Positions 5,371 through 58,867 of a stretch of 64,000 bases of DNA are shown piece by piece (position 1 is the first letter of the stretch; each line of letters begins with the position of its first letter). Source of the stretch: Candidatus Hodarchaeota archaeon (lineage in GTDB: Archaea; Asgardarchaeota; Odinarchaeia; Odinarchaeales; JBHLKK01); contig JBHLKK010000001.1 of assembly GCA_048886745.1 (NCBI GenBank), positions 33,925 through 97,924 of the forward strand. The letters run 5' to 3'. The notes under the pieces are model-generated. The model had not been told where the DNA came from. It saw nothing but the letters and a program-made list of their open reading frames with translations, and did not search any database. Both the position numbers and the translations under genes were made by a program.

Positions 5371-5730
5371 TCACCTAAATATCTTTGAATACCATTTGGG
5401 CAGCTCATTGACGTAATTATCTAGGTTCTTAGATATTTTCTCAGTCAGTTCCAATATTTTCTCGGTGTATTGTTCTGGTTTTTCCTTTTCACTCAATATC
5501 AGAGCTGTAGCTCTTTCCGAATTGTTATCAAAATAACTATAAACCTTCAGCCTTCCAACTTTAGTTTTGATGAACTCCACAGGATTGATGCCTACTTTCA
5601 TATTTGGAAAATGCATGCTAAAGACAGTTGTTGCAAATGAGGGAGGGACCCACGCACTTCTGGTACATCTTGCCTCAATAACTCCTCCAAGGCGATTATC
5701 CCACTTGATTATTACGATACCTAGTGGCAA
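5371..5730 (-). CDS. Hypothetical small protein, possible single longin/roadblock-like domain
   Basis: The 119-aa N-terminus MPLGIVIIKWDNRLGGVIEA...FATTVFSMHF loosely follows the pattern of the neighbouring longin-like paralogs. The C-terminus is helical. Confidence 0.45.
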   Translation of the reverse strand: MPLGIVIIKWDNRLGGVIEARCTRSAWVPPSFATTVFSMHFPNMKVGINPVEFIKTKVGRLKVYSYFDNNSERATALILSEKEKPEQYTEKILELTEKISKNLDNYVNELPKWYSKIFR

Positions 5731-6008: not shown

Positions 6009-6677
6009 ATGCCAGTTCACGGTATATGGATAATCGATAGCGCTGGACTCTGCATATTCCACAAGAACTATAGTAATATTAACATAGACCCCCAGCTATT
6101 TTCGGGGTTCTTTACAGCGCTCGTTCAATTTTCAACTGAGATCAATAAGGTCCAGCTAGAACGTATAGTTCTGGGATATCTAGACATATCATATACTAAT
6201 GATCGGGGCATTCACTTTGTTGTGTGTACAAATAAAGGAGAGTCTGCCATCAGAATTCTTAGGGGCATAAGAGAAACTTTCAGCGACCATTTTAAGGATG
6301 AAATGATTGTTCTAAGTGATATGCTAAGAGACGGACCAGGCTTAAGTCTGCTTAATAGGTTTGAAAAAGAGCTTGATAGAATTGTTGGCTACGCCCCTGA
6401 CGCAGAGTTTCGTCCTTCAAGGTATGTTTCCATCACAAGAGTTCTAAAAAGAGGATCTGAAATGAGGAATACTTTGGAAAGAAAGTTCGGAACTGATGGA
6501 ATAGCCATAATGCTTCTATGTGATGGAAGTCGAGCTATCACAGATATAGCTGATGAGCTCAATATCCCAGAAGAAGAAGTTGCCAAGATTGTTGATTTCG
6601 GAGTTAAAGAGAAAATATTGGGAACAATGCGCGTCAGGAGCGATGTTGATCAGGTAGCAGATCAGAGTGTTCTATGA
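6009..6677 (+). CDS. Longin/roadblock-like N-terminal domain + C-terminal winged-helix protein
   Basis: N-terminus MPVHGIWIIDSAGLCIFHKNY...DPQLFSGFFTALVQFSTEI resembles TRAPP Bet5/sedlin-type longin folds. The C-terminal part ITDIADELNIPEEEVAKIVDFGVKEKIL is wHTH-like. Confidence 0.6.
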   Translation: MPVHGIWIIDSAGLCIFHKNYSNINIDPQLFSGFFTALVQFSTEINKVQLERIVLGYLDISYTNDRGIHFVVCTNKGESAIRILRGIRETFSDHFKDEMIVLSDMLRDGPGLSLLNRFEKELDRIVGYAPDAEFRPSRYVSITRVLKRGSEMRNTLERKFGTDGIAIMLLCDGSRAITDIADELNIPEEEVAKIVDFGVKEKILGTMRVRSDVDQVADQSVL

Positions 6678-6730: not shown

Positions 6731-7093
6731 TTATGCGCCAAACATTTTTCTGACTCGGGATACAAGTAATCGCCCTTTCACACCATGAGATTTAACTTCA
6801 ACCATTCCCTTTTCCTCAGCTTCTTTATACTCCTCTTTGCTCAAGGTATTCAGAAGCATACTCAGAGTCCCATTATCTCCAGTTATTGAAACATGGGGTT
6901 TTTTTAGTAAATCCTCATTTAACTTAACATCATTCTTTGAGATTTCGGCGGAAAGTGTTTCACCAGTATCTGTAGCTGTAACATTTATCTTTGCCGAACC
7001 AACCAGTCTCAAAATGGTTCGCACTTTCCTGCTTTGAAGCATACTTGTCCCAACCACTTTCAATTTCTCGTTGACAGCTTCATATAGAGACAT
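6731..7093 (-). CDS. Hypothetical protein, weak SCP2 (sterol-carrier)-like pattern
   Basis: 120 aa. Size and the segments VSITGDNGTLSMLLNTLS...VEVKSHGVKGRLLVSRVRKMF are reminiscent of SCP2 domains. The function call is weak. Confidence 0.4.
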   Translation of the reverse strand: MSLYEAVNEKLKVVGTSMLQSRKVRTILRLVGSAKINVTATDTGETLSAEISKNDVKLNEDLLKKPHVSITGDNGTLSMLLNTLSKEEYKEAEEKGMVEVKSHGVKGRLLVSRVRKMFGA

Positions 7094-7274: not shown

Positions 7275-8045
7275 TTAGCTTATGTATGATTGACGATCTG
7301 AGGCTTCAGGCAATCTCTTCTCAAGACGTCCTCTCAGCTTCGCGAAAGCCTTTTCCATAGTTGCAATTTGTTTGTCCAGTGCACTCATATCAATTCCAAT
7401 ATTGAACCATTTGCCCAATATTTGAACAATCGCTTTGGAAGCCTTTGGATCGGTCGCTAAAACGGGTATTGTCTCTGCCAAGAGACAGACTCCTTCAATT
7501 CCATATTTAGCTTTACCCCATGCAGGGATTATGCCATTTGCGCCCATAATGACCCCTTCCTTCATCACCTTGCATTGATCATGTTTGGCGAAGATGTCAA
7601 GAAGTTCATGCGAAGTCGAAGAAACAAAGATGCTGGGCTCAGAGGAGACATTATCCGTAACATAGGCACCTGTTGAGACAATAGTCTTAACCCCATGAGA
7701 ATTGCAGAAGTCGCTGATGTGATCAGAAAAAGCAAATATTCCTAGAGAGGTTGTTGGTTGGAAATCGCCACTTATGAAGAATAAATCATTTACTCCCTTA
7801 GGATCTTTCCAGAAGTAGATCGTTGATCGCGGTACATGAAGCTTCCCGTTTGCCCCTACAGCAACCTGAGCTGGGAAATCATGATAGAAAATCAAAGCGA
7901 TCTTCTCGGCTTTTAGGCTATCTGCAATGTTGAGGACGGCCCCCTTTCCAACCATTGCTATTCCGGGTAGGCCTACAATAGCCACAGGACTATTCATCTT
8001 GGCTAGATCCAGTTTCTTTAGAATCTCTGTGCGGGGTCCATTCAT
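7275..8045 (-). CDS. PAC2-family proteasome assembly chaperone-like protein
   Basis: SPVAIVGLPGIAMVGKGAVLNIADSL...IFYHDFPAQVAVGANGKL...LFFISGDFQP matches the archaeal PAC2 pattern. The ORF-track start at 8129 is a TTG. ATG 8045 is preceded by GTGAAGGA, so I prefer it. Confidence 0.65.
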   Translation of the reverse strand: MNGPRTEILKKLDLAKMNSPVAIVGLPGIAMVGKGAVLNIADSLKAEKIALIFYHDFPAQVAVGANGKLHVPRSTIYFWKDPKGVNDLFFISGDFQPTTSLGIFAFSDHISDFCNSHGVKTIVSTGAYVTDNVSSEPSIFVSSTSHELLDIFAKHDQCKVMKEGVIMGANGIIPAWGKAKYGIEGVCLLAETIPVLATDPKASKAIVQILGKWFNIGIDMSALDKQIATMEKAFAKLRGRLEKRLPEASDRQSYIS

Positions 8046-8135
8046 CTGGGTCAAATCCTTCACTCCCTTATTGAAAAATGGAGACAAACTCCACTTAAAA
8101 AGATATTGAATGTCATAGATTCCATACAAGAGAAG

Positions 8136-9059
8136 TCACGATTCAGCATTACTTGTGATTCGAGACTTAATATCTGGTACTTTGATCTGGACAAGTTCGA
8201 CAATCTTTGGAATCATTGATTCATCAATGTCCAATTCCTTAATCAGCTCATCTCCTGTAATTTCCTCTTTGAAACGAAGCAGATTGCAGATCCTAGTAAC
8301 ATAGCTATATGTCCGGCTAATCCTGTTTTTGAGTATTTCAAGTCCTCTTGGATCTTGCATGTCTTTTACTTCCAAAACCATTTGAATTAATGAGGTCATC
8401 CAAGAGACATTCTCTGATTCCGGAAGTCCGTATTTCTCAGATAGGCCGGTATCAAGATAGTATACAACATATTTGTCAGGTTTGTCAACAGATGCCAGCT
8501 CATCTGGTTTAACACCTATCAATTGAGATTCTTCTATTTTGTTTTCTTCAGTTACCTGTGCTATTGACACACTCTCAGGAGAAATGCTGGATAATGTGCA
8601 TAGCAGTATGCGAACCTCGTTCCTATTATCCCCAGCAATGAAGATTTTATCGCCATTAATTACGTGATAAATAAGTTTCGCAAAATCACTGGCAGAAACG
8701 ATTCTCAGAGTATCCTCTATCGATTTGAGCGCAGCGATATCAATCATTGTAGCGATATTTTCTTTCTTGAGATTTAGAATGAACGCAAGTGATATTTGGG
8801 ATAAACGCCAGTTGATTTGTGATCTTGGATAGTCTCTCCCACTAACGACTATTAATATGTGATCACTCATCTTCTTGAACCAAAAAGTAAAGTCACTTGT
8901 GGATATTTCTTCGACACTCTGACCTGTCAATACGCTGAGAAAACTATTTTGGGCACTAAAATACCCAGACATGAGTGTAGCATCAACCGCGATGGTCCCG
9001 TACATTCTAGAAATGAGTGGGATCCCGTTTATCTCCAAAATGTAGACATTGTGTATCAT
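8136..9059 (-). CDS. Longin-like + DENN-core-like + winged-helix protein (hypothetical)
   Basis: N-terminus MIHNVYILEINGIPLISRMYG...DATLMSGYFSAQNSF is longin-like. The middle part LIYHVINGDKIFIAGDNRNEVRILLCTLSSISP ... QLIGVKPDELAS...KYVVYYLDTG mirrors cDENN motifs. The C-terminus is wHTH-like. Start is ATG at 9059. Confidence 0.6.
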   Translation of the reverse strand: MIHNVYILEINGIPLISRMYGTIAVDATLMSGYFSAQNSFLSVLTGQSVEEISTSDFTFWFKKMSDHILIVVSGRDYPRSQINWRLSQISLAFILNLKKENIATMIDIAALKSIEDTLRIVSASDFAKLIYHVINGDKIFIAGDNRNEVRILLCTLSSISPESVSIAQVTEENKIEESQLIGVKPDELASVDKPDKYVVYYLDTGLSEKYGLPESENVSWMTSLIQMVLEVKDMQDPRGLEILKNRISRTYSYVTRICNLLRFKEEITGDELIKELDIDESMIPKIVELVQIKVPDIKSRITSNAES

Positions 9060-9240: not shown

Positions 9241-9747
9241 TTGAAAGGTGTCTATACTCTAGTGTTCATAATTCCACAGGAAATCCGGATTAAGATCGGA
9301 AGTCTGGGAACCGTCAGATTTGAAACAGGCATTTATGCTTACATTGGCTCAGCATTAGGTGTGGGCATTGCCAGTCTTAAAGGTAGAATAAAACGACATA
9401 TTTCGAAGAGGAAGAGAATCTTCTGGCACATTGATTATCTTTTGATGCACGAGGAAGTGCAAATTATCGAGGTCATTTATGCTAGGACCAACCTAAAAAT
9501 GGAATGTGAGATTTCAGGAATATTAGAGAGCTCTCCCCTAGTTACCACTCCTATCGAGAGATTTGGTGCATCTGACTGTGAGAGCGGGTGTAGGAGTCAT
9601 CTTTGTCATATCAAAACAAACATGGAAGAAGCCCTGCGAATAATAATCCGCTGCTATAGCAGAGCAGGGCAAGAGCCAGAAAGATTCAGATTAAATCGAT
9701 ATGGCACTCCCAAACTCAAGGTATCATTAATGTTGAGGTCTCTTTGA
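9241..9747 (+). CDS. GIY-YIG-like nuclease family protein (DUF123)
   Basis: GVYTLVF...GIYAYIGSALG...LKGRIKRHISKRKRIFWHIDYLL is the characteristic DUF123 signature. The start codon is TTG. Confidence 0.75.
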   Translation: MKGVYTLVFIIPQEIRIKIGSLGTVRFETGIYAYIGSALGVGIASLKGRIKRHISKRKRIFWHIDYLLMHEEVQIIEVIYARTNLKMECEISGILESSPLVTTPIERFGASDCESGCRSHLCHIKTNMEEALRIIIRCYSRAGQEPERFRLNRYGTPKLKVSLMLRSL

Positions 9748-10223: not shown

Positions 10224-13200
10224 CTATTCGAGTGCTTTTTCGTATACAGCCGCTATTCTTTGGGCAACTTTCTTCCAGGAGCATACTTTTAATACAAAAT
10301 CCCTGGCATTTCTTCCCATCTGTCTCCTTTTTTTATCATTATTGAGGAGATCGAGAATGGCCTCGGATAGATTCTCCACAAGTTCAGAATCCAGACTTAC
10401 GAGTCGTCCTACATCGCGGTTTACGAATTCCTCGAACGATTCTATCCTGGAGGCAACTGTGGGTAAACCACATGCCATAGCCTCCAAAACAGATATACTC
10501 ATTAATTCCATTTTGGTCATTGTCACGAATAGGTCTGCATGTCTGAGGAGTCTGATCTTTTCTTCTTCTGGAACGTAGCCAGTAATAACAACATTTTTGC
10601 TTCCATACCTACTTTTCAGAGAATTATAAAGAGGACCCTTTCCTACAATCATCAAGCGAACCCTTTCACCAAAATCACATTTCAAATAAGCTTTGATCAG
10701 TGGCTCTATGTTTTTCTCAGGGGATAATCTTCCAACATATAGGATGGTTTTCTCTTTCTTCTTCTTCAACGGTATTGGTCTGAATACATTCACATCTACT
10801 CCTGTCGGAATGTGATTTACATTAGGAAATCCTGCACTTTTCACAAAACTCTCCTGCGATTTGGAGGTTACTATTATCTGATCTGACTGTTTTAGATATC
10901 TTTTCCCTATTTGATACATTAGACGGGAGAGATATCCATATGTTGAATCCTGAAGTGATAAAGCATAGTGAAGGTTGGAGACTATGGGCACATTCAATCT
11001 CCTTGCAGCCTTAAAGGCATAAGCATCCCAGGTTGTAGTAGGCCAGTGTAGGTGCAAAAGCTGAAATGGTTGCTTCTTATGAATTCTCAGAATTGTGTTT
11101 ATCGCCTCTTCGCCTTTGGGAAGTACAAAATAGAATTCTCCAATTCTAACTCTTGTGGGAAGGGGAATGTCCTCAGGATATATAGGTTCCATATCCTTCT
11201 CTTCTGGAAAATAGAAGCCAACTATCTTTGCATCATCTTTCTCTAGGTGTTTACGAAGATGCGCAACGTAGTGATATATGCCATGAGTGGCCCCTGGATA
11301 AATCATACCAATATGTCGAGTTTTTCCCTCTATGTGCTCTTCTTCTCTTGGGCTAACCACCAGCTCATTTCTATCTTCAGGATGACATTCTAAGCCCCCC
11401 ACAAGATAGTGCGGCATCGCTATTGATTTTGCAGTTGCCAGCATAGTCTCAGGATTTTTATGTTCGAGTAGTGACAGAACAGAGACTTGTCTGTAGATTC
11501 CCGCATGGATCCAGTTGGTGCGAAGACTTACATCAATGCCAAGAACATCCTTTTCCTGAATTAGTCGGTCAAATGATTTTCCAATAGTCTCATCGGGATT
11601 GCATATAGCCCAAATAAGCATATTGCTTTTATTATCAACAAAAACCGATCCATTATCATAATCAGAGACTATGTGGGAGTCTCCAGTGTCTAATCCGATG
11701 TATGGAACTAGAGCCTGCCGACAATCCACATCTTCAACGAGTGTCTTTATCTCAAGCGGATTAAATAGGAGCATTGGTGTTTCATCGACATTGAAGACAT
11801 AAATTCTAAAAGTAAGCTTGTGAACATCAGTTGCAAACTTACCTGAGAGTCTTAAACAAAATGGGCTATCTTTGTTGTCCAAAGTCACCCCAGAAGTTCT
11901 CTTTTTGATCTTTTTCCACTCATGCATTCTAATGTCATCTTCTGCCTTCTTTGGTCCCACTCCAAAAAGAGCATCCCTTACATTACTTGAAGTGAGGAGA
12001 AGCCGAAGATGATATTGACGTAAAGGTCTCTTTATTGTTCGTCTGAGTCCTGCATACCGAGAATAACTAGGCCAAAATGACACTCCAATACCTTTTTTGT
12101 TGAGGACATTCTTACCATTAGTGTCTTTTACTGATTCTATTACACCTGTTCTTTGATTTATTCTGCAGAATTCTCTCCAGTCATCGTTTTCTCTTACTTC
12201 TATCGATAAGCATTCTCCATCGAGATTGCACCTTACTCTGCTTGGTATTCTTCTTCTTGTTCGAGCTTTGTCATCAAAATAAATGAAAAGCTGTGTTTGA
12301 GGATGTCTGACAGGTATATGAGCAATGATTTCATCACCAATGGATAATCGAGTTTCATCCTTACTAATGACATGAGAGGAGATCAACTTGCCTTTATGGA
12401 TTATTCGGATAGATTGTGGATTTACTGCAGTATCCTGATTATCAAGCAAGTGTTTAGCTGGAATGATAACGGGAACCTTTGCCAGATCAGAAGGCAAATC
12501 AAAAAGAAATAGAGGAATACGATGTTTCCAGCTCTTATTCCACCATTTTTCAGTTGTCCCTTCTCCTGTCTGCAATTGAATGAAATGTTTACCGCTGGGA
12601 ACTATGATGTCTCTGGATTTCAAATCTTTTCCGTTTAGTTTGGTCAGAACCTCTCCGTCAATAGACAGGAGAATCTTATCTGAAGGGAAGTTCCTGACAG
12701 TAATCCTGGGACGAGTTCCATTGTACCATATTTTGATTCTTTGGTCTTCAGGACTCCAGAGAGCAAGAAGGTTTCCGACTGACTTCCCTGTAACCCTTAT
12801 TCCTGAATCATTCTGTTTTCCAATAAGGACTGTTGAGGTTTGACCCTTTTTCAGATTAATGCCAAAAACACTTCTATTGCTTCTCGACACAATTTCTTCC
12901 TTGTCTATCTCTGCACGTCGTCCGGCTAGGTATGGTGAGTGTATTTCGATTCCTGAAAGCTCAACATCTGAGTCGTTCTCCAAAACAATGTAAACGATTC
13001 CGTTTTTTAGGTAAATTTCCTTAAGAAAGCTGCATCTTTCCAAGAGCTCAATCTTGCCTCTTCTTATTTTGAAACTGACCTTCTTGTCCAGCGTATCACA
13101 TTCCATCGATGCTAGAAGAAGCTCGTTGGCAGCAAATGTTTGTTGAACCGGTATTTCTTCCAGTCTGTGAATATAGTTGAAGAAGTAAGTCTCACTAAGG

Positions 13201-15161
13201 CCACCATCATGTTCTCTAAATTTAAGCGCTTTCCAATAAACATAATCGAAAACTTTTTTCCAGAAAGGATCTCCGGTTAACCTATATAGTCTTGCATAGA
13301 CCGGTAGAACCATGACCGTTTCATAAGGGGCTACTCGAGGAGTTATAGAAAAAGAAAGCGGATCAAAACCACCATGAATCTCAAGGTTGTCCGATTCCCA
13401 CCAAAAGTGCCATGTTAGAAGATATTTGGCCCAAGCCAAACCATAGTCTAGGAATCTTCGAGTATGAAGTGTCTCATAGGCATCTAAATTGGCATGAGCA
13501 GCTATAATTGCAGATATTCCTTCTTCCTCGTCCACTCCAGCATCTCTTAGATAATTGTACCCTAAACATGCAAAAGCTTTCGGGTTAAGCCAACCTAGCC
13601 CCTTCAATGCCGCGGAAAGGTAAATCTTCTCACCCGTTATGCGGTAGGCCATAAGAAGAGCTCTGATGCACTCTGCACTTCCACCAACAGACTCCTTAGA
13701 TTCAAAATCCATCCTGCGGGCAGGGTACTCACGAAAAACTTTTATTCCAAGTCGCCAAGCTCCATTCTCTTTTTGGGTTTTTAGTATCCAGTCAAGCGCA
13801 TCCAAACCAGCATTCAAAGCTCTTCTGTCCTCAAGGTCTTCCCAGTCTCGTCGCACACTGAATAATTCTAGGAACTTCAGAGCAATAGTTGCTTGACCGC
13901 CTGGATATCCCGCATATCCACTCCTAAGGTAAGAATATCCTTCAGCTGCTACTCCGTTATAAGCGATACCATTGTGCCAGATCCTGCAATTGTTCTTGAT
14001 TTCGGAGAGATTCTCGGAAAGCAGCAGCTTTCTTAATTGCCTTGACCAATTGAGGAAGAATCTGTTGCCGCTCTTCAAGTAGTAGCGGTAGAAACCTACC
14101 ATTCGTTCTGCTTCAAAAGAGGTAAGACCGAATAGTAAATCATCAAACAGAAAAGATGGATGATCCTTATATGGAAGCTGTAGAAAGGTTTTCAGCCTAT
14201 CATCCCAGGCTCTCCAAAAAGCGTTTTGGGTTTTTGCCGCAACTTTTCTGCAGGTTTCAATATCCAGATCTACGGGCTCCAAGGGCTTCATTTGGAAGAA
14301 CTTGTCGACAGCTTCAGTCCAAATACCATATCCGTATAAAATGGTTGCTGTGGATTTGATCTCTTCCCCAGCGTCCAGAATTATAGGAAGAGGCTCAGGT
14401 TTTGGATGGCGGCCCAGCCAAATATTGCTTTTTAGCATTAGTTCTTGGGAGCAGTAGGCTAAAGCCGCAACATTGTTCCCTGTTTCAGAGGTTTTTTTAC
14501 CCTCAAATCTTATGGAATGAACAAGATCTTGACCAAGACTTGATTTTTCAACTGGAGAAAATGCAATCCCAAAATATGAATTGGAGGAGTCAAATACTAT
14601 AAGAGGCATTTTGCAGTACATTGCACTTCGATAATAGTTTCCATCGATGACTGTTGGCGGAATCTTGGATTTATAGTAGGTCGAGAAAGGATAGGGGAAA
14701 TCAAATGTTCGATTAACTATATCAAAGTCGTTGGAGCGAATATATCTCATACCACCTACAAAGGCATAATTCAACGGAAATGTGTAGCACAAAATCGGAT
14801 TCTCAAAAAGAACTAGTTCAACTCTATCTTGAGAGGTGCATGTTGTCATTATTCGAGGAAAAGACGTTGAAAAATCCCAGATTGTGTGGATTTTCCATCC
14901 TTTGGATTTTCCAGATATCTTAATTCTATCCTTTTCGACCACAATGTCGTTCAGCGGTATTCTAAGTTTCAGGGGTTCTCCATCTATCTTATAAATTATA
15001 GTAGGAGGGTTTGGCTCAAAGGCTATCTTTCTATCCCTTGAAAATCCTTTGTCCGTAAGGTAGAGCCCTTCCAAGAGCCAACCATTTTCTCCCTTTCTCC
15101 ATTGCCATTTTTCATTATTCTTTACAAGGGTAACTACACCTTCTTTTCCCGTGATCTCCAT
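10224..15161 (-). CDS. Giant (1645 aa) multidomain protein: N-terminal beta-rich + (alpha/alpha)-toroid glycoside-hydrolase-like region, beta-sandwich middle, C-terminal GT4 glycosyltransferase
   Basis: The C-terminal ~390 aa carry GT4/GT-B signatures: HLHWPTTTWDAYAFKAARRLNVPIV, ILYVGRLSPEKNIEPLIKAY, VLEAMACGLPTVASRIESFEEFV. Residues ~400-700 have toroid-like repeats (GGSAECIRALLMAYRITGEKIYLSAALKGLGWL). Start is ATG at 15161. No signal peptide is visible. Confidence 0.85.
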   Translation of the reverse strand: MEITGKEGVVTLVKNNEKWQWRKGENGWLLEGLYLTDKGFSRDRKIAFEPNPPTIIYKIDGEPLKLRIPLNDIVVEKDRIKISGKSKGWKIHTIWDFSTSFPRIMTTCTSQDRVELVLFENPILCYTFPLNYAFVGGMRYIRSNDFDIVNRTFDFPYPFSTYYKSKIPPTVIDGNYYRSAMYCKMPLIVFDSSNSYFGIAFSPVEKSSLGQDLVHSIRFEGKKTSETGNNVAALAYCSQELMLKSNIWLGRHPKPEPLPIILDAGEEIKSTATILYGYGIWTEAVDKFFQMKPLEPVDLDIETCRKVAAKTQNAFWRAWDDRLKTFLQLPYKDHPSFLFDDLLFGLTSFEAERMVGFYRYYLKSGNRFFLNWSRQLRKLLLSENLSEIKNNCRIWHNGIAYNGVAAEGYSYLRSGYAGYPGGQATIALKFLELFSVRRDWEDLEDRRALNAGLDALDWILKTQKENGAWRLGIKVFREYPARRMDFESKESVGGSAECIRALLMAYRITGEKIYLSAALKGLGWLNPKAFACLGYNYLRDAGVDEEEGISAIIAAHANLDAYETLHTRRFLDYGLAWAKYLLTWHFWWESDNLEIHGGFDPLSFSITPRVAPYETVMVLPVYARLYRLTGDPFWKKVFDYVYWKALKFREHDGGLSETYFFNYIHRLEEIPVQQTFAANELLLASMECDTLDKKVSFKIRRGKIELLERCSFLKEIYLKNGIVYIVLENDSDVELSGIEIHSPYLAGRRAEIDKEEIVSRSNRSVFGINLKKGQTSTVLIGKQNDSGIRVTGKSVGNLLALWSPEDQRIKIWYNGTRPRITVRNFPSDKILLSIDGEVLTKLNGKDLKSRDIIVPSGKHFIQLQTGEGTTEKWWNKSWKHRIPLFLFDLPSDLAKVPVIIPAKHLLDNQDTAVNPQSIRIIHKGKLISSHVISKDETRLSIGDEIIAHIPVRHPQTQLFIYFDDKARTRRRIPSRVRCNLDGECLSIEVRENDDWREFCRINQRTGVIESVKDTNGKNVLNKKGIGVSFWPSYSRYAGLRRTIKRPLRQYHLRLLLTSSNVRDALFGVGPKKAEDDIRMHEWKKIKKRTSGVTLDNKDSPFCLRLSGKFATDVHKLTFRIYVFNVDETPMLLFNPLEIKTLVEDVDCRQALVPYIGLDTGDSHIVSDYDNGSVFVDNKSNMLIWAICNPDETIGKSFDRLIQEKDVLGIDVSLRTNWIHAGIYRQVSVLSLLEHKNPETMLATAKSIAMPHYLVGGLECHPEDRNELVVSPREEEHIEGKTRHIGMIYPGATHGIYHYVAHLRKHLEKDDAKIVGFYFPEEKDMEPIYPEDIPLPTRVRIGEFYFVLPKGEEAINTILRIHKKQPFQLLHLHWPTTTWDAYAFKAARRLNVPIVSNLHYALSLQDSTYGYLSRLMYQIGKRYLKQSDQIIVTSKSQESFVKSAGFPNVNHIPTGVDVNVFRPIPLKKKKEKTILYVGRLSPEKNIEPLIKAYLKCDFGERVRLMIVGKGPLYNSLKSRYGSKNVVITGYVPEEEKIRLLRHADLFVTMTKMELMSISVLEAMACGLPTVASRIESFEEFVNRDVGRLVSLDSELVENLSEAILDLLNNDKKRRQMGRNARDFVLKVCSWKKVAQRIAAVYEKALE

Positions 15162-40618: not shown

Positions 40619-42073
40619 TCAGGAAACCAGGTAGATTATCTCTCTTTTTTGCAGATTCATTAGTGCCTTTGTTGCGGACTCTCTTGTTAGTTTTATGTCA
40701 CCTTTTTCAATGAATTTCTCCAGTTCATTGGCATTCAGCCTGCTGTCTGATATTAGGTTCACAAGCTTGTCGATTTCCCTTATTGGAATCTTGTTCTTAC
40801 TGACAAACAGCCTGAAGCCTTTTGAGTCTCTATAATACTCCCAATATGCTTTTGAGCCAAAATCATCGATTGAGTATAGCTGCGTTTGGGGTCTAACAAT
40901 TTCACCGTTCTCTATACGGTGAAGGTGTGACCCGAAATATCGTCTCACCAATCGTTCGACTGGTCTAAACACTGAGAGGTCGCCATTCCAATATTCTAGT
41001 ATATGATTGAATCTTACTTCAAAGGTATCTACAAGGACTCTCATCTTGCTTCTCACTTCATCTTCTGCCGTCTCAGTCGTGCAGACCACAGTAACACAGA
41101 TCTTCTGGCCCCATTCACATAATATCTGTAGATTGCCCTTACGTATTCCTGATAGTTCCCCCTCACTAGGTAACATCTGTTTTGCGAATGTTGAGACTGC
41201 GGTCAAAAAGGCAGAAACCACATCTACTTCATATTCAGCATTCTCAGATTTCGCATTGAATAAGCAATAACCATTTCTATCGATTATATAGACATCATAT
41301 ATTTGAGGTGTGAGAGCAAAGATTTCTAGTTGACCTCCCCCCATTATTGATAGAGGAACCATTCCTTCATTATTTGCCAGTGCGAAACTTATCCAATCTG
41401 AATTAGGATCTCTGTTCTTCATTCTTCTTATTCTAATTTGTCTTTGATGATTTCCTGCAACCTCAGTAAATCTAAACTCAATTTCACCATCAAAGCTACT
41501 TTGAACTCGTCGTCTTAGTTCTTCGGGTTGTACATCTGGTGTAAGTGTACATAGACAGGACGCATTATCCAGACGGATATTTGCTACAAGCTCATCGAGG
41601 AAATTCATAATGAATTGACCTTCTCGATCATATTCAATTAGATCCGACAGTGAATCTATCACAAGACGTACTTTGTCGTATTTTCTCATGTAGCTAAATG
41701 CAGAAGCAATTTTCAAGTTTAGGAGAGAGAGATTTCTTGGGTCAAAATAACCACCTTCGACAAACATGCTCTTCGAAGGGGAACCTTCGATGAACATCAG
41801 TTGCTCGTTTTCCAAGTAATTCGTTATATCCCATCCCATGCGTTTCATCATAGAGGTGACCGTATTTGAGGATTCGCTCAAAGCTACATATATGCCGCCT
41901 TCACCGTTTTCTAATCCCTCATGAATGAATTTCTGACACATTATAGACTTGCCTACTCCCGACTCTCCTACGACAACTATCGCAGCCGAAGGGGGGAAAC
42001 CTCCTCCCAACATATTGTCTAAGAATACAATTCCTGATTTTTCTAGGTTGCTTTTCCTGAGTTCATTAAACAA
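40619..42073 (-). CDS. KaiC/RadA-like RecA-superfamily ATPase fused to a longin-like domain and C-terminal winged helix
   Basis: Walker A is VVVGESGVGKS and Walker B is VRLVIDSLSDL. Residues ~260-350 read IYDVYIIDRNGYCLFNAKSE...VDVVSAFLTAVSTFAKQM (longin/Bet5-like). The C-terminus is LTRESATKALMNLQKREIIYLVS. Confidence 0.75.
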   Translation of the reverse strand: MFNELRKSNLEKSGIVFLDNMLGGGFPPSAAIVVVGESGVGKSIMCQKFIHEGLENGEGGIYVALSESSNTVTSMMKRMGWDITNYLENEQLMFIEGSPSKSMFVEGGYFDPRNLSLLNLKIASAFSYMRKYDKVRLVIDSLSDLIEYDREGQFIMNFLDELVANIRLDNASCLCTLTPDVQPEELRRRVQSSFDGEIEFRFTEVAGNHQRQIRIRRMKNRDPNSDWISFALANNEGMVPLSIMGGGQLEIFALTPQIYDVYIIDRNGYCLFNAKSENAEYEVDVVSAFLTAVSTFAKQMLPSEGELSGIRKGNLQILCEWGQKICVTVVCTTETAEDEVRSKMRVLVDTFEVRFNHILEYWNGDLSVFRPVERLVRRYFGSHLHRIENGEIVRPQTQLYSIDDFGSKAYWEYYRDSKGFRLFVSKNKIPIREIDKLVNLISDSRLNANELEKFIEKGDIKLTRESATKALMNLQKREIIYLVS

Positions 42074-48851: not shown

Positions 48852-49259
48852 ATGAGCGAAGATGTTCCAGGAGAAGTTTTGAGATTTGTGACTAGGGCAT
48901 TAGACGATATCTATTCAAGGACAGATAACATCATAAAGTCCATGAATGAACTCAACAAAACGCTGAAGAGTCTAAAGGAAGGACTTGACAAGAATACCAA
49001 GTCAATGGTCGAGCAGATAGAGAAATTGGGGAAACAGAACAAAGATCTGAGGGTAAGTATGATAAGCAAGGTCTCAGAACTGGAGAACAAAGCTCATTCA
49101 GACCTGCAACTGATTCTTTCTGAAGTCAAGAACAGAAACCCCAAAGAGATGGTTGAAACCCTTGATAGGTTGCTCAAGAAAACCAGGAGTGCAGCCTGGC
49201 TTGTTCAGCTGACATCTCTTAGCAGAGAGCTTACAAAAGTTCTGGAGAGTCTCGCATAG
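48852..49259 (+). CDS. Hypothetical helical/coiled-coil protein
   Basis: 135 aa. It starts 21 nt after the previous gene and has a similar composition and length. Confidence 0.55.
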   Translation: MSEDVPGEVLRFVTRALDDIYSRTDNIIKSMNELNKTLKSLKEGLDKNTKSMVEQIEKLGKQNKDLRVSMISKVSELENKAHSDLQLILSEVKNRNPKEMVETLDRLLKKTRSAAWLVQLTSLSRELTKVLESLA

Positions 49260-58342: not shown

Positions 58343-58867
58343 TCAAACAGAAAGTACTTTTCGTACCATCATTCGAGCTAACATGGAAAAACAGTCAACA
58401 ACATTTACTCCGAACTTGGCAGACGACTCATAATAGGGAATTCCCCGATCATAGGCTAGCTTTTCCCCTTCTTCACGACTGATCATGCGACTATTGGTCA
58501 TATCTACCTTATTCGCAACCAGAATCATTGGAATTATACTACACTGATTTACAACTTCATTAAACCACTTATCCATGTTTTTGAATGTTTCACTTCTTGT
58601 TACGTCATAGACCAACAGACACCCTTTGGCACCCCTATAGTAGAGAGATCTTAGATTGCTAAATCTTTCTTGACCACCTGTATCCCAGATTTGCAGCTTC
58701 ACATGCAGTCCGTCCACATCTATGGTTTTTATGGCGAATGATACGCCTACGGTAAGCTTATATTCGTCACTAAAACTCTCCTCGCTAAACCTGGTGGTCA
58801 AGGATGTTTTCCCTACTGCCCCATCTCCAACTACGATGGTCTTGAAAAGATAATCATAATCAGGCAT
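58343..58867 (-). CDS. Rab/Ras-like small GTPase (eukaryote-like)
   Basis: G1 GDGAVGKT, switch I YKLTVGVSF, G3 WDTGGQERF, G4 NKVD, G5 SSAK. There is no C-terminal Cys prenylation motif (the protein ends RKVLSV). Confidence 0.9.
   Translation of the reverse strand: MPDYDYLFKTIVVGDGAVGKTSLTTRFSEESFSDEYKLTVGVSFAIKTIDVDGLHVKLQIWDTGGQERFSNLRSLYYRGAKGCLLVYDVTRSETFKNMDKWFNEVVNQCSIIPMILVANKVDMTNSRMISREEGEKLAYDRGIPYYESSAKFGVNVVDCFSMLARMMVRKVLSV

Follow-up and report, generated by a model that had tools for sequence, protein, structure and literature searches.

The gene at 8136..9059 (minus strand) of a 64,000-nucleotide stretch of the Candidatus Hodarchaeota archaeon assembly GCA_048886745.1 (contig JBHLKK010000001.1, positions 33,925 to 97,924; hereafter the window) encodes a protein of 307 amino acids (aa) that probably belongs to the longin-DENN superfamily as a compact, strongly diverged archaeal representative, with folliculin (FLCN), FNIP, SMCR8, C9orf72 and DENND1 as its probable closest eukaryotic counterparts. 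The architecture itself, in which a DENN-type domain comes after a longin domain, appears very likely to us, since it is indicated by sequence-only and model-based lines of evidence that are independent of each other and agree in register, each of them being modest. The gene is complete in the list of open reading frames (ORFs), from an ATG start to a stop codon at 8136..8138, and the start Met is common to the orthologues; the GC content of the window is about 40%. The protein is 100% identical to the NCBI entry 'hypothetical protein ACFE7E_00200 [Candidatus Hodarchaeota archaeon]' (P0001). An initial annotation, made by eye, had proposed here a DENN-like module on the basis of two sequence blocks recalling DENND1-type proteins, and both the ORF and the two blocks were found in the translation.

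Block 1, LIYHVINGDKIFIAGDNRNEVRILLCTLSSISP (aa 129-161, 8577..8675, minus strand), comprises a helix, strand β1 (KIFIA) and a helix ending at P161, and block 2, QLIGVKPDELASVDKPDKYVVYYLDTG (aa 179-205, 8445..8525, minus strand), comprises the QLIGV strand and the YVVYYLDTG strand. P161 is invariant in the family, and T155 and G182 are conserved at 90% or more (alignments A3 and A4). The DENND1 strings with which the blocks had been compared were accurate when checked against PDB 6ekk_A (DENND1A) and 3tw8_A, whereas the spacing of about 30 aa given for the blocks has to be corrected to 17 residues. The DENN-type domain (aa ~105-263, 8271..8747, minus strand) was placed on the basis of Pfam Folliculin_C, hhalign and Foldseek. 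Folliculin_C matched aa 111-170 on its profile positions 3-63 with an E-value of 1.7e-3 (3.1e-4 in P0002), and the sub-threshold matches to Folliculin_C and Fuz_longin_1 both recur in orthologues. FNIP_C weakly matched the C-terminal ~80 residues of P0003 and of the 24%-identical P0007. The Pfam models uDENN, DENN and dDENN did not match the 307-aa protein, so that the Pfam comparison suggested earlier returned sub-threshold similarity on the folliculin and FNIP side and nothing on the canonical DENN side.

A comparison of profiles gave the strongest sequence-level match. The C-terminal alignment of the family (A4) was compared by hhalign with an alignment of 19 FLCN C-termini, consisting of human FLCN 341-579 (verified against 6ulg_L) and metazoan homologues. 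The score was 41.6, with P 1.5e-5 and a probability of 79%, and the aligned stretch paired aa 107-185 with human FLCN 342-422. It takes in the whole of block 1 and the first residues of block 2 (QLIGVKP), in which QLIGV paired with NFLGL of FLCN. The maximum scores of the controls were 18.5 for 100 column shuffles and 28.4 for 100 eight-column block shuffles, and the reversed profile scored 13.4. As judged from these profiles, the resemblance of the family to FLCN C-termini is beyond chance. With a relaxed alignment threshold the FLCN match ran colinearly to the C-terminus at low confidence, and the comparison with a single FLCN sequence kept the right register at a non-significant P of 0.024. 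The match to DENND1A/B was weak (P 0.008); QLIGV paired with YLIGI (PYLIGIH), and the YVVYYLDTG strand also fell where the eye had placed it, the two-block register with DENND1 being thereby reproduced. FLCN and DENND1, which are structural homologues, gave nothing when compared with each other in the same test.

The AlphaFold2 (AF2) model of the full protein, built from a 13-sequence alignment, had a pLDDT (predicted local distance difference test) of 84.4 and a pTM (predicted template-modelling score) of 0.81. After the longin domain, it shows helices in aa 99-134, a five-stranded α/β core at aa 138-210 (predicted strands 138-142, 166-168, 180-183, 197-201 and 206-210) and helices at 218-234 and 239-263, so that the elements of the C-terminal domain follow the order β-α-β-β-α-β-β and then helices. 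The DENN module superfamily reportedly combines longin/uDENN, DENN and dDENN parts (Levivier 2001; Zhang et al., 2012), the dDENN part being all-α with two α-hairpins; here two long helices come after the core, and the last 45 aa look helix-turn-helix (HTH)-like and do not match the FLCN tail. In a Foldseek search of the PDB with the full model, DENND1B (3tw8, E 8.6e-6), DENND10 and DENND1A ranked first, above MON1A, Fuzzy and C9orf72 (6lt0_C), with FLCN (6ulg_L) lower; matches to single longin or roadblock structures were numerous as well. Global TM-scores were low, from 0.3 to 0.38, which may reflect different orientations of the lobes. Then, aa 99-307 were modelled alone (pLDDT 83.4) to tell a DENN domain from a second longin domain. 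The top seven Foldseek matches of this isolated domain were exclusively DENND1B/1A, FLCN and SMCR8, with E-values of 1.6e-3 to 3.2e-2. The chains of DENND1 and FLCN reached TMq values of 0.44-0.50 over ~210 columns, the two SMCR8 chains 0.32. After a gap, the next matches, from E 0.06 on, were the P-loop-like proteins TsaE and YdiB. Such second-tier matches agree with a DENN core, because its published topology is a minimal P-loop-like α/β sandwich of five strands devoid of nucleotide-binding residues (Zhang et al., 2012, PMC3521125). Both DENND1B and folliculin structures, proposed earlier as the references for a model, were thus among the matches of the full model and of the isolated domain. 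The DENN proposal had been staked on residues ~110-210, and residues ~105-210 do resemble DENN proteins specifically, in profile (the recurrent sub-threshold Folliculin_C and the FLCN match) as well as in structure (the seven leading Foldseek matches).

The longin (uDENN-equivalent) domain occupies aa 1-97 (8769..9059, minus strand) and shows the ββαβββα order in the secondary structure assigned by DSSP to the AF2 model, with strands at 2-9, 14-19, 51-53, 57-64 and 67-74 and helices at 27-45 and 79-95. Its Foldseek matches in the PDB include adaptin sigma/mu, zeta-COP, TRAPP, LAMTOR and Asgard roadblock structures, and Pfam Fuz_longin_1 covers aa 5-97 below threshold (E 0.013; 0.013 to 5e-4 across 6 family members). 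The longin-like character attributed earlier to the N-terminus is therefore borne out by topology, structural matches and the sub-threshold Pfam match. The domain carries a G12-I13-P14 loop before β2 and a D26..SG[YF] motif where helix 1 begins. The β1-β2 loop reads N-G12-I13-P14 and is thus G-x-P, not G-P; all six full-length members keep G12 and P14, and the Lokiarchaeial relatives have G-I-C. According to DSSP and the alignment, the β4-β5 hairpin is K62-K63-M64-S65-D66-H67, with an invariant K63 and without any conserved Arg.

The protein ends with a tail (aa 264-307, 8139..8270, minus strand) bearing an HTH-like signature, ITGDELIKELDIDESMIPKIVELVQ. DSSP places helices at 269-276 and 280-290 between two-residue strands at 267-268 and 301-302. 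Compared by hhalign with the winged helix-turn-helix (wHTH) tails of Asgard longin-wHTH paralogues (the product of 6009..6677 and P0054-69), the tail (ITGDELIKELDIDESMIPKIVELVQIKVPD...) matched with P 3.7e-4 and a probability of 36% over 25 columns. The Pfam match to PF0610-like_N was negligible (E 0.23), and no similarity to the FLCN tail was detected by hhalign (E 0.67). Lokiarchaeial relatives lack the tail altogether, P0025 and P0040-42 stopping before it. The winged helix claimed in the initial annotation is consistent with the order of elements in the model and with the weak hhalign match, the Pfam signal being negligible; a small winged helix is plausible.

What such a protein would do can be proposed from the known members of the superfamily. 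A Ras-superfamily small GTPase would be bound in the cleft between the longin and DENN lobes, and the longin-DENN protein would control or read the nucleotide state of the bound GTPase, because all characterised longin-DENN modules do so; a homo- or heterodimer would probably form via the edge of the longin β-sheet. As to whether it is a guanine nucleotide exchange factor (GEF) or part of a GTPase-activating protein (GAP), two loops of the longin domain were considered. FLCN R164 and NPRL2 R78 are arginine fingers which we take to lie in the β4-β5 hairpin. Eukaryotic GAP longins combine an arginine finger, which is R147 in SMCR8, with a GP motif that closes the β1-β2 loop (PMC12290439). The hairpin KKMSDH of the 307-aa protein has no Arg where FLCN R164, NPRL2 R78 and SMCR8 R147 sit, which makes an arginine-finger GAP less likely. 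Over a catalytic GAP subunit we weakly favour a GTPase-binding GEF or scaffold, either an exchange factor similar to DENND1 or a partner without catalytic activity, similar to FNIP/C9orf72.

The Rab-like GTPase cited earlier as context for a Rab-GEF role does exist in the window: a Ras/Rab-like small GTPase is encoded at 58343..58867 (minus strand; Pfam Ras, E 2.8e-57) and is the only Ras-like GTPase in the window. However, it does not provide that context, being 49 kb distant and unlinked, and on genomic grounds we rejected it as the cognate partner, as it stands alone between the gene for glutamyl-tRNA synthetase (GluRS) and a thermosome gene. Its product ends in ...MVRKVLSV and, having no C-terminal cysteine, carries no prenylation signal.

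Several points weigh against the longin-DENN assignment and the role proposed with it. The structure models were built on shallow alignments of 12-13 sequences, and for the isolated domain Foldseek gave marginal E-values (about 1e-3), TM-scores of at most 0.50 and a root-mean-square deviation of 8-10 Å. The curated models all remain below threshold (Folliculin_C reaches 18.4 bits for a cut-off of 27), and searches of PDB sequences with the single sequence and with an 8-sequence profile retrieved no DENN-like entry, a designed helical protein and noise being all that came up. The genes next to the longin-DENN gene do not include a GTPase, roadblock or LAMTOR-like one, the arginine-finger position was matched by secondary-structure element and not by superposition, and GTPase binding and catalytic activity are pure inference. 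Part of this list is also what a generic Rossmann-like or P-loop-like α/β domain placed after a longin/roadblock domain would produce, the DENN matches being then convergent or artefacts of a shallow multiple sequence alignment: Pfam scores below threshold, marginal Foldseek E-values, TM-scores not above 0.5, and TsaE and YdiB in the second tier. We consider this scenario, which the initial annotation had itself named as a refutation, improbable, as the comparison of profiles is independent of any model and was accompanied by clean shuffle controls and by the same register as Pfam, a clear gap separates the seven DENN matches from the rest, and the order longin then DENN is canonical. Also, direct reading of the sequence revealed no Walker A motif, nor any Walker A/B motif. 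A still less probable view, to which we give very little weight, starts from the longin side. Tri-longin Rab-GEF subunits (Mon1, Ccz1, Fuzzy, Inturned and HPS1) carry two further longin domains after the first, and the 307-aa protein's C-terminal part would accordingly be a second, degenerate longin/roadblock domain. The best Pfam longin match is indeed Fuz_longin_1, and with the full-length model Foldseek also matched MON1A, Fuzzy and Mon1 (E 7e-5 to 5e-4) over ~300 aligned columns. Nevertheless, the isolated C-terminal domain matched no tri-longin, longin or roadblock structure, its order β-α-β-β-α-β-β plus helices differs from ββαβββα, and both hhalign and Pfam point to the C-terminal domain of folliculin.

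The tail opens another way of reading the protein, in which the longin and α/β domains bind a ligand or a partner, the HTH tail binds DNA, and the DENN likeness is structural only, the whole being a sensor for transcription. The H-β-H-H-β topology of the tail in the model and its resemblance to the wHTH tails of the longin-wHTH paralogues (hhalign P 3.7e-4) are in line with such a regulator, as is the existence of proteins made of a longin domain and a wHTH domain both next to the gene (6009..6677) and elsewhere (P0054-69; HTH_47, E 3.6e-5). Yet the HTH signal is weak by the probability, the number of columns and the Pfam E-value given above, NPRL2/3 possess wHTH domains that do not bind DNA, and the tail is missing in the Lokiarchaeial relatives, which keep longin and DENN. 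The specific similarity to DENN domains would also be left unexplained, and we hold a transcriptional role to be unlikely. A longin-DENN protein, with or without a winged helix at its end, thus remains our preferred interpretation.

The 307-aa family is small and isolated. A word-indexed search of 5.8 billion proteins retrieved only four close orthologues (76-100% identity), and a scan of 1.84 billion representative proteins with a HMMER profile found about four full-length or near-full-length relatives. The latter scan added the full-length P0005 and P0006 (31-32% identity), the fragment P0007 and the Lokiarchaeial form P0025, and all its other matches were artefacts from repeat proteins or extended over no more than the ~100 residues at the N-terminus. 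P0015 and P0018, which produced long multi-stretch matches, were discarded as false because they are repetitive proteins. When a pattern scan with the 6-sequence alignment was run on 185,579 GTDB species representatives, four loci were obtained, in metagenome-assembled genomes (MAGs) labelled Promethearchaeota or Odinarchaeota. In the databases the family is called 'hypothetical protein', P0006 being a 'roadblock/LC7 domain-containing protein [Candidatus Odinarchaeia archaeon]'. A second profile search brought in more Lokiarchaeial members, which consist of the longin domain, a longer linker and the α/β domain, without the C-terminal tail, and in some of which the α/β domain is duplicated. Outside the window, the Lokiarchaeial P0038 and P0039 (419 aa) have one longin domain followed by two tandem DENN-like α/β domains, and P0046 consists of a DENN-like domain on its own, to which a zinc ribbon is joined at the C-terminus. 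In view of these tandem and stand-alone copies, the α/β domain behaves like a mobile unit of Asgard genomes.

The neighbourhood of the longin-DENN gene is conserved. The divergent DUF123 gene (9241..9747, plus strand; Pfam DUF123, E 5.3e-26) shares the intergenic region with it in the window and in all relatives. Next downstream on the same strand, as had been reported before, lies a gene for a PAC2-family proteasome-assembly-chaperone homologue (7275..8129, minus strand; Pfam PAC2, E 4.1e-30; TIGR00162, E 3.9e-39), and the adjacency of the two genes is kept in all relatives inspected. The true start of the PAC2 gene is likely the ATG at 8045, giving 256 aa, and the orthologues have 256-257 aa. 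A ribosome-binding-like motif, GGGAGTGAAGG, just precedes this ATG, ~90 nt past the longin-DENN stop, an arrangement that is compatible with co-transcription of the two genes. The third gene of the run (6731..7093, minus strand) encodes an SCP2-like protein of 120 aa and comes after PAC2 in loci L004, L007, L012 and L013; among its orthologues, that of L004 matches Pfam SCP2 (E 2.1e-3) and that of L007 Alkyl_sulf_C (E 0.13). The order of divergent DUF123, longin-DENN, PAC2 and SCP2-like gene is retained in every relative inspected, even in those whose longin-DENN proteins are only 32-35% identical, and the longin-DENN gene is probably co-transcribed with the PAC2 and SCP2-like genes. The wider synteny is partly retained as well (FeoB, SIS, amidohydrolase and HAD hydrolase genes). 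The genomes are therefore not very distant from each other, and the adjacency provides only moderate evidence of functional coupling.

Further along lies the gene of a 119-aa protein to which no family name could be given (5371..5730, minus strand), with the signature MPLGxxxIKWDNxxGG...SMHFPxMK and an invariant R73 just before a hydrophobic stretch. It has 119-121 aa in relatives and 47-53% identity across lineages. Its gene directly follows the SCP2-like gene in two MAGs labelled Odinarchaeota (L012 and L013), where longin-DENN, PAC2, SCP2-like and 119-aa genes are consecutive on one strand, and is nearby in the others. Neither Pfam nor PDB sequences gave a meaningful match to the 119-aa protein (best PDB E 0.099). 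The idea that it might be an NPRL2-like longin with an arginine finger was not supported, as hhalign gave E 0.33 and 0.054 against two longin alignments and the Pfam and PDB searches nothing. One could imagine that the longin-DENN, PAC2 and SCP2-like proteins, possibly with the 119-aa protein, form a functional unit in which a folliculin-like module, perhaps completed by the 119-aa protein as catalytic partner, would make the assembly of proteasomes or proteolysis respond to a signal from a small GTPase or from nutrients. We regard this as unlikely at present. If true, it would represent an archaeal precursor of the FLCN/GATOR-type link between amino-acid sensing and protein turnover in eukaryotes.

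Also in this neighbourhood, on the opposite strand, is a longin and winged-helix paralogue of 222 aa (6009..6677, plus strand; longin hidden Markov model (HMM), E 8.8e-9; Pfam HTH_47, E 8.3e-3), which shares 27-39% identity with the 307-aa family over its N-terminal 51 aa and is an insertion found in the closest relatives only. It displays an NPRL2/3-like architecture, and its predicted β4-β5 hairpin contains an Arg (NDRGIH, read by eye). An HMM scan of all ORFs of the window detected no second DENN-like gene and two further longin-like domains, that of the 222-aa protein and that of a fusion at 40619..42073 (minus strand). This 484-aa protein has an unusual ATPase-longin architecture, namely a KaiC/RecA-type ATPase (Pfam E 4.9e-35) fused to a longin-like domain at aa ~258-345, which scored E 1.7e-3 with the family longin HMM and E 0.03 with Sybindin; its C-terminal region is without Pfam assignment. 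A giant protein of 1645 aa (10224..15161, minus strand) adjoins the cluster in close relatives too; its C-terminus is a GT4-type glycosyltransferase by the Pfam families of the L001 orthologue, and its large N-terminal part has no assigned family. Mo25 is a scaffold of the eukaryotic LKB1/STRAD complex. The 135-aa product of 48852..49259 (plus strand) matches the Mo25-like family of Pfam below threshold (E 6.5e-5, 22.8 bits for a cut-off of 31.2) and may, from its sequence, be another eukaryote-like protein.

In eukaryotes, membrane traffic and nutrient signalling have longin-DENN proteins among their core regulators, as Rab GEFs and in the FLCN, GATOR1 and C9orf72 GAP complexes. The presence of longin-DENN proteins in Asgard archaea bears on the origin of this machinery, and the minimal 307-aa version would lend itself to structure determination and to the question of which activity, GEF or GAP, is ancestral. 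Later literature treats Asgard DENN proteins as known, after Liu et al. (10.1101/2020.10.19.343400), and the 307-aa protein very probably adds to the published longin-DENN proteins a previously unannotated and unusually compact member. The DENN assignment improves on annotations such as 'hypothetical' or 'roadblock/LC7 domain-containing'. Neither the conserved pairing with PAC2 and SCP2-like genes nor the sequence-level likeness of the family to FLCN as well as DENND1 appears to have been described before, and a single full-text literature search on Asgard proteasome assembly chaperones and longin found no link between DENN and PAC2.

FLCN, FNIP1/2, SMCR8 and C9orf72 combine a longin domain with a divergent DENN domain and act in GAP complexes for RagC/D and for Arf/Rab GTPases. 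The 307-aa protein shares with this group the two-domain order, the best Pfam match (Folliculin_C, with FNIP_C in relatives), the best profile-profile match and the Foldseek matches 6ulg_L, 7o2w_B, 6lt0_B and 6lt0_C. In contrast, it is half the size, has no insertions, carries G-I-P in place of the G-P loop, lacks the hairpin Arg (R164 in FLCN, R147 in SMCR8) and ends in a tail unlike that of FLCN, while its gene neighbours are PAC2 and SCP2-like genes and not Rag or Ragulator-like ones. DENND1A and DENND1B are canonical uDENN-cDENN-dDENN GEFs of Rab35 (PDB 6ekk and 3tw8). They are top Foldseek matches to both the full model and the isolated domain, and the two blocks stand in register with them (LIG ... 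hydrophobic strand-D-T), whereas the likeness in sequence is weak (hhalign P 0.008), the uDENN, DENN and dDENN models of Pfam found no match, and the all-helical dDENN is replaced by, or shortened to, two long helices and an HTH-like tail.

With NPRL2 and NPRL3 of GATOR1 and with the Asgard longin-wHTH proteins, the 307-aa protein has in common an N-terminal longin from one family of Asgard paralogues, bearing the D..L.SGF motif, and possibly a C-terminal HTH-like module; the arginine finger and GP motif of NPRL2 are not reproduced. The wHTH domains of eukaryotic NPRL2/3 are reported to be devoid of DNA binding (PMC3521125). Liu et al. (bioRxiv 10.1101/2020.10.19.343400; Nature 2021) described Asgard DENN proteins, FLCN-like longin-DENN proteins of Heimdallarchaea among them, together with an operon composed of a LAMTOR1-like roadblock gene, a Rab-like GTPase gene and a DENN gene. 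Unlike in that operon, the gene studied here adjoins DUF123, PAC2, SCP2-like, longin-wHTH and 119-aa genes, roadblock and GTPase genes not being adjacent. Its product nevertheless shares with the proteins of Liu et al. the Asgard origin, the longin and DENN order 'exactly as FLCN' and a lineage-specific paralogous expansion.

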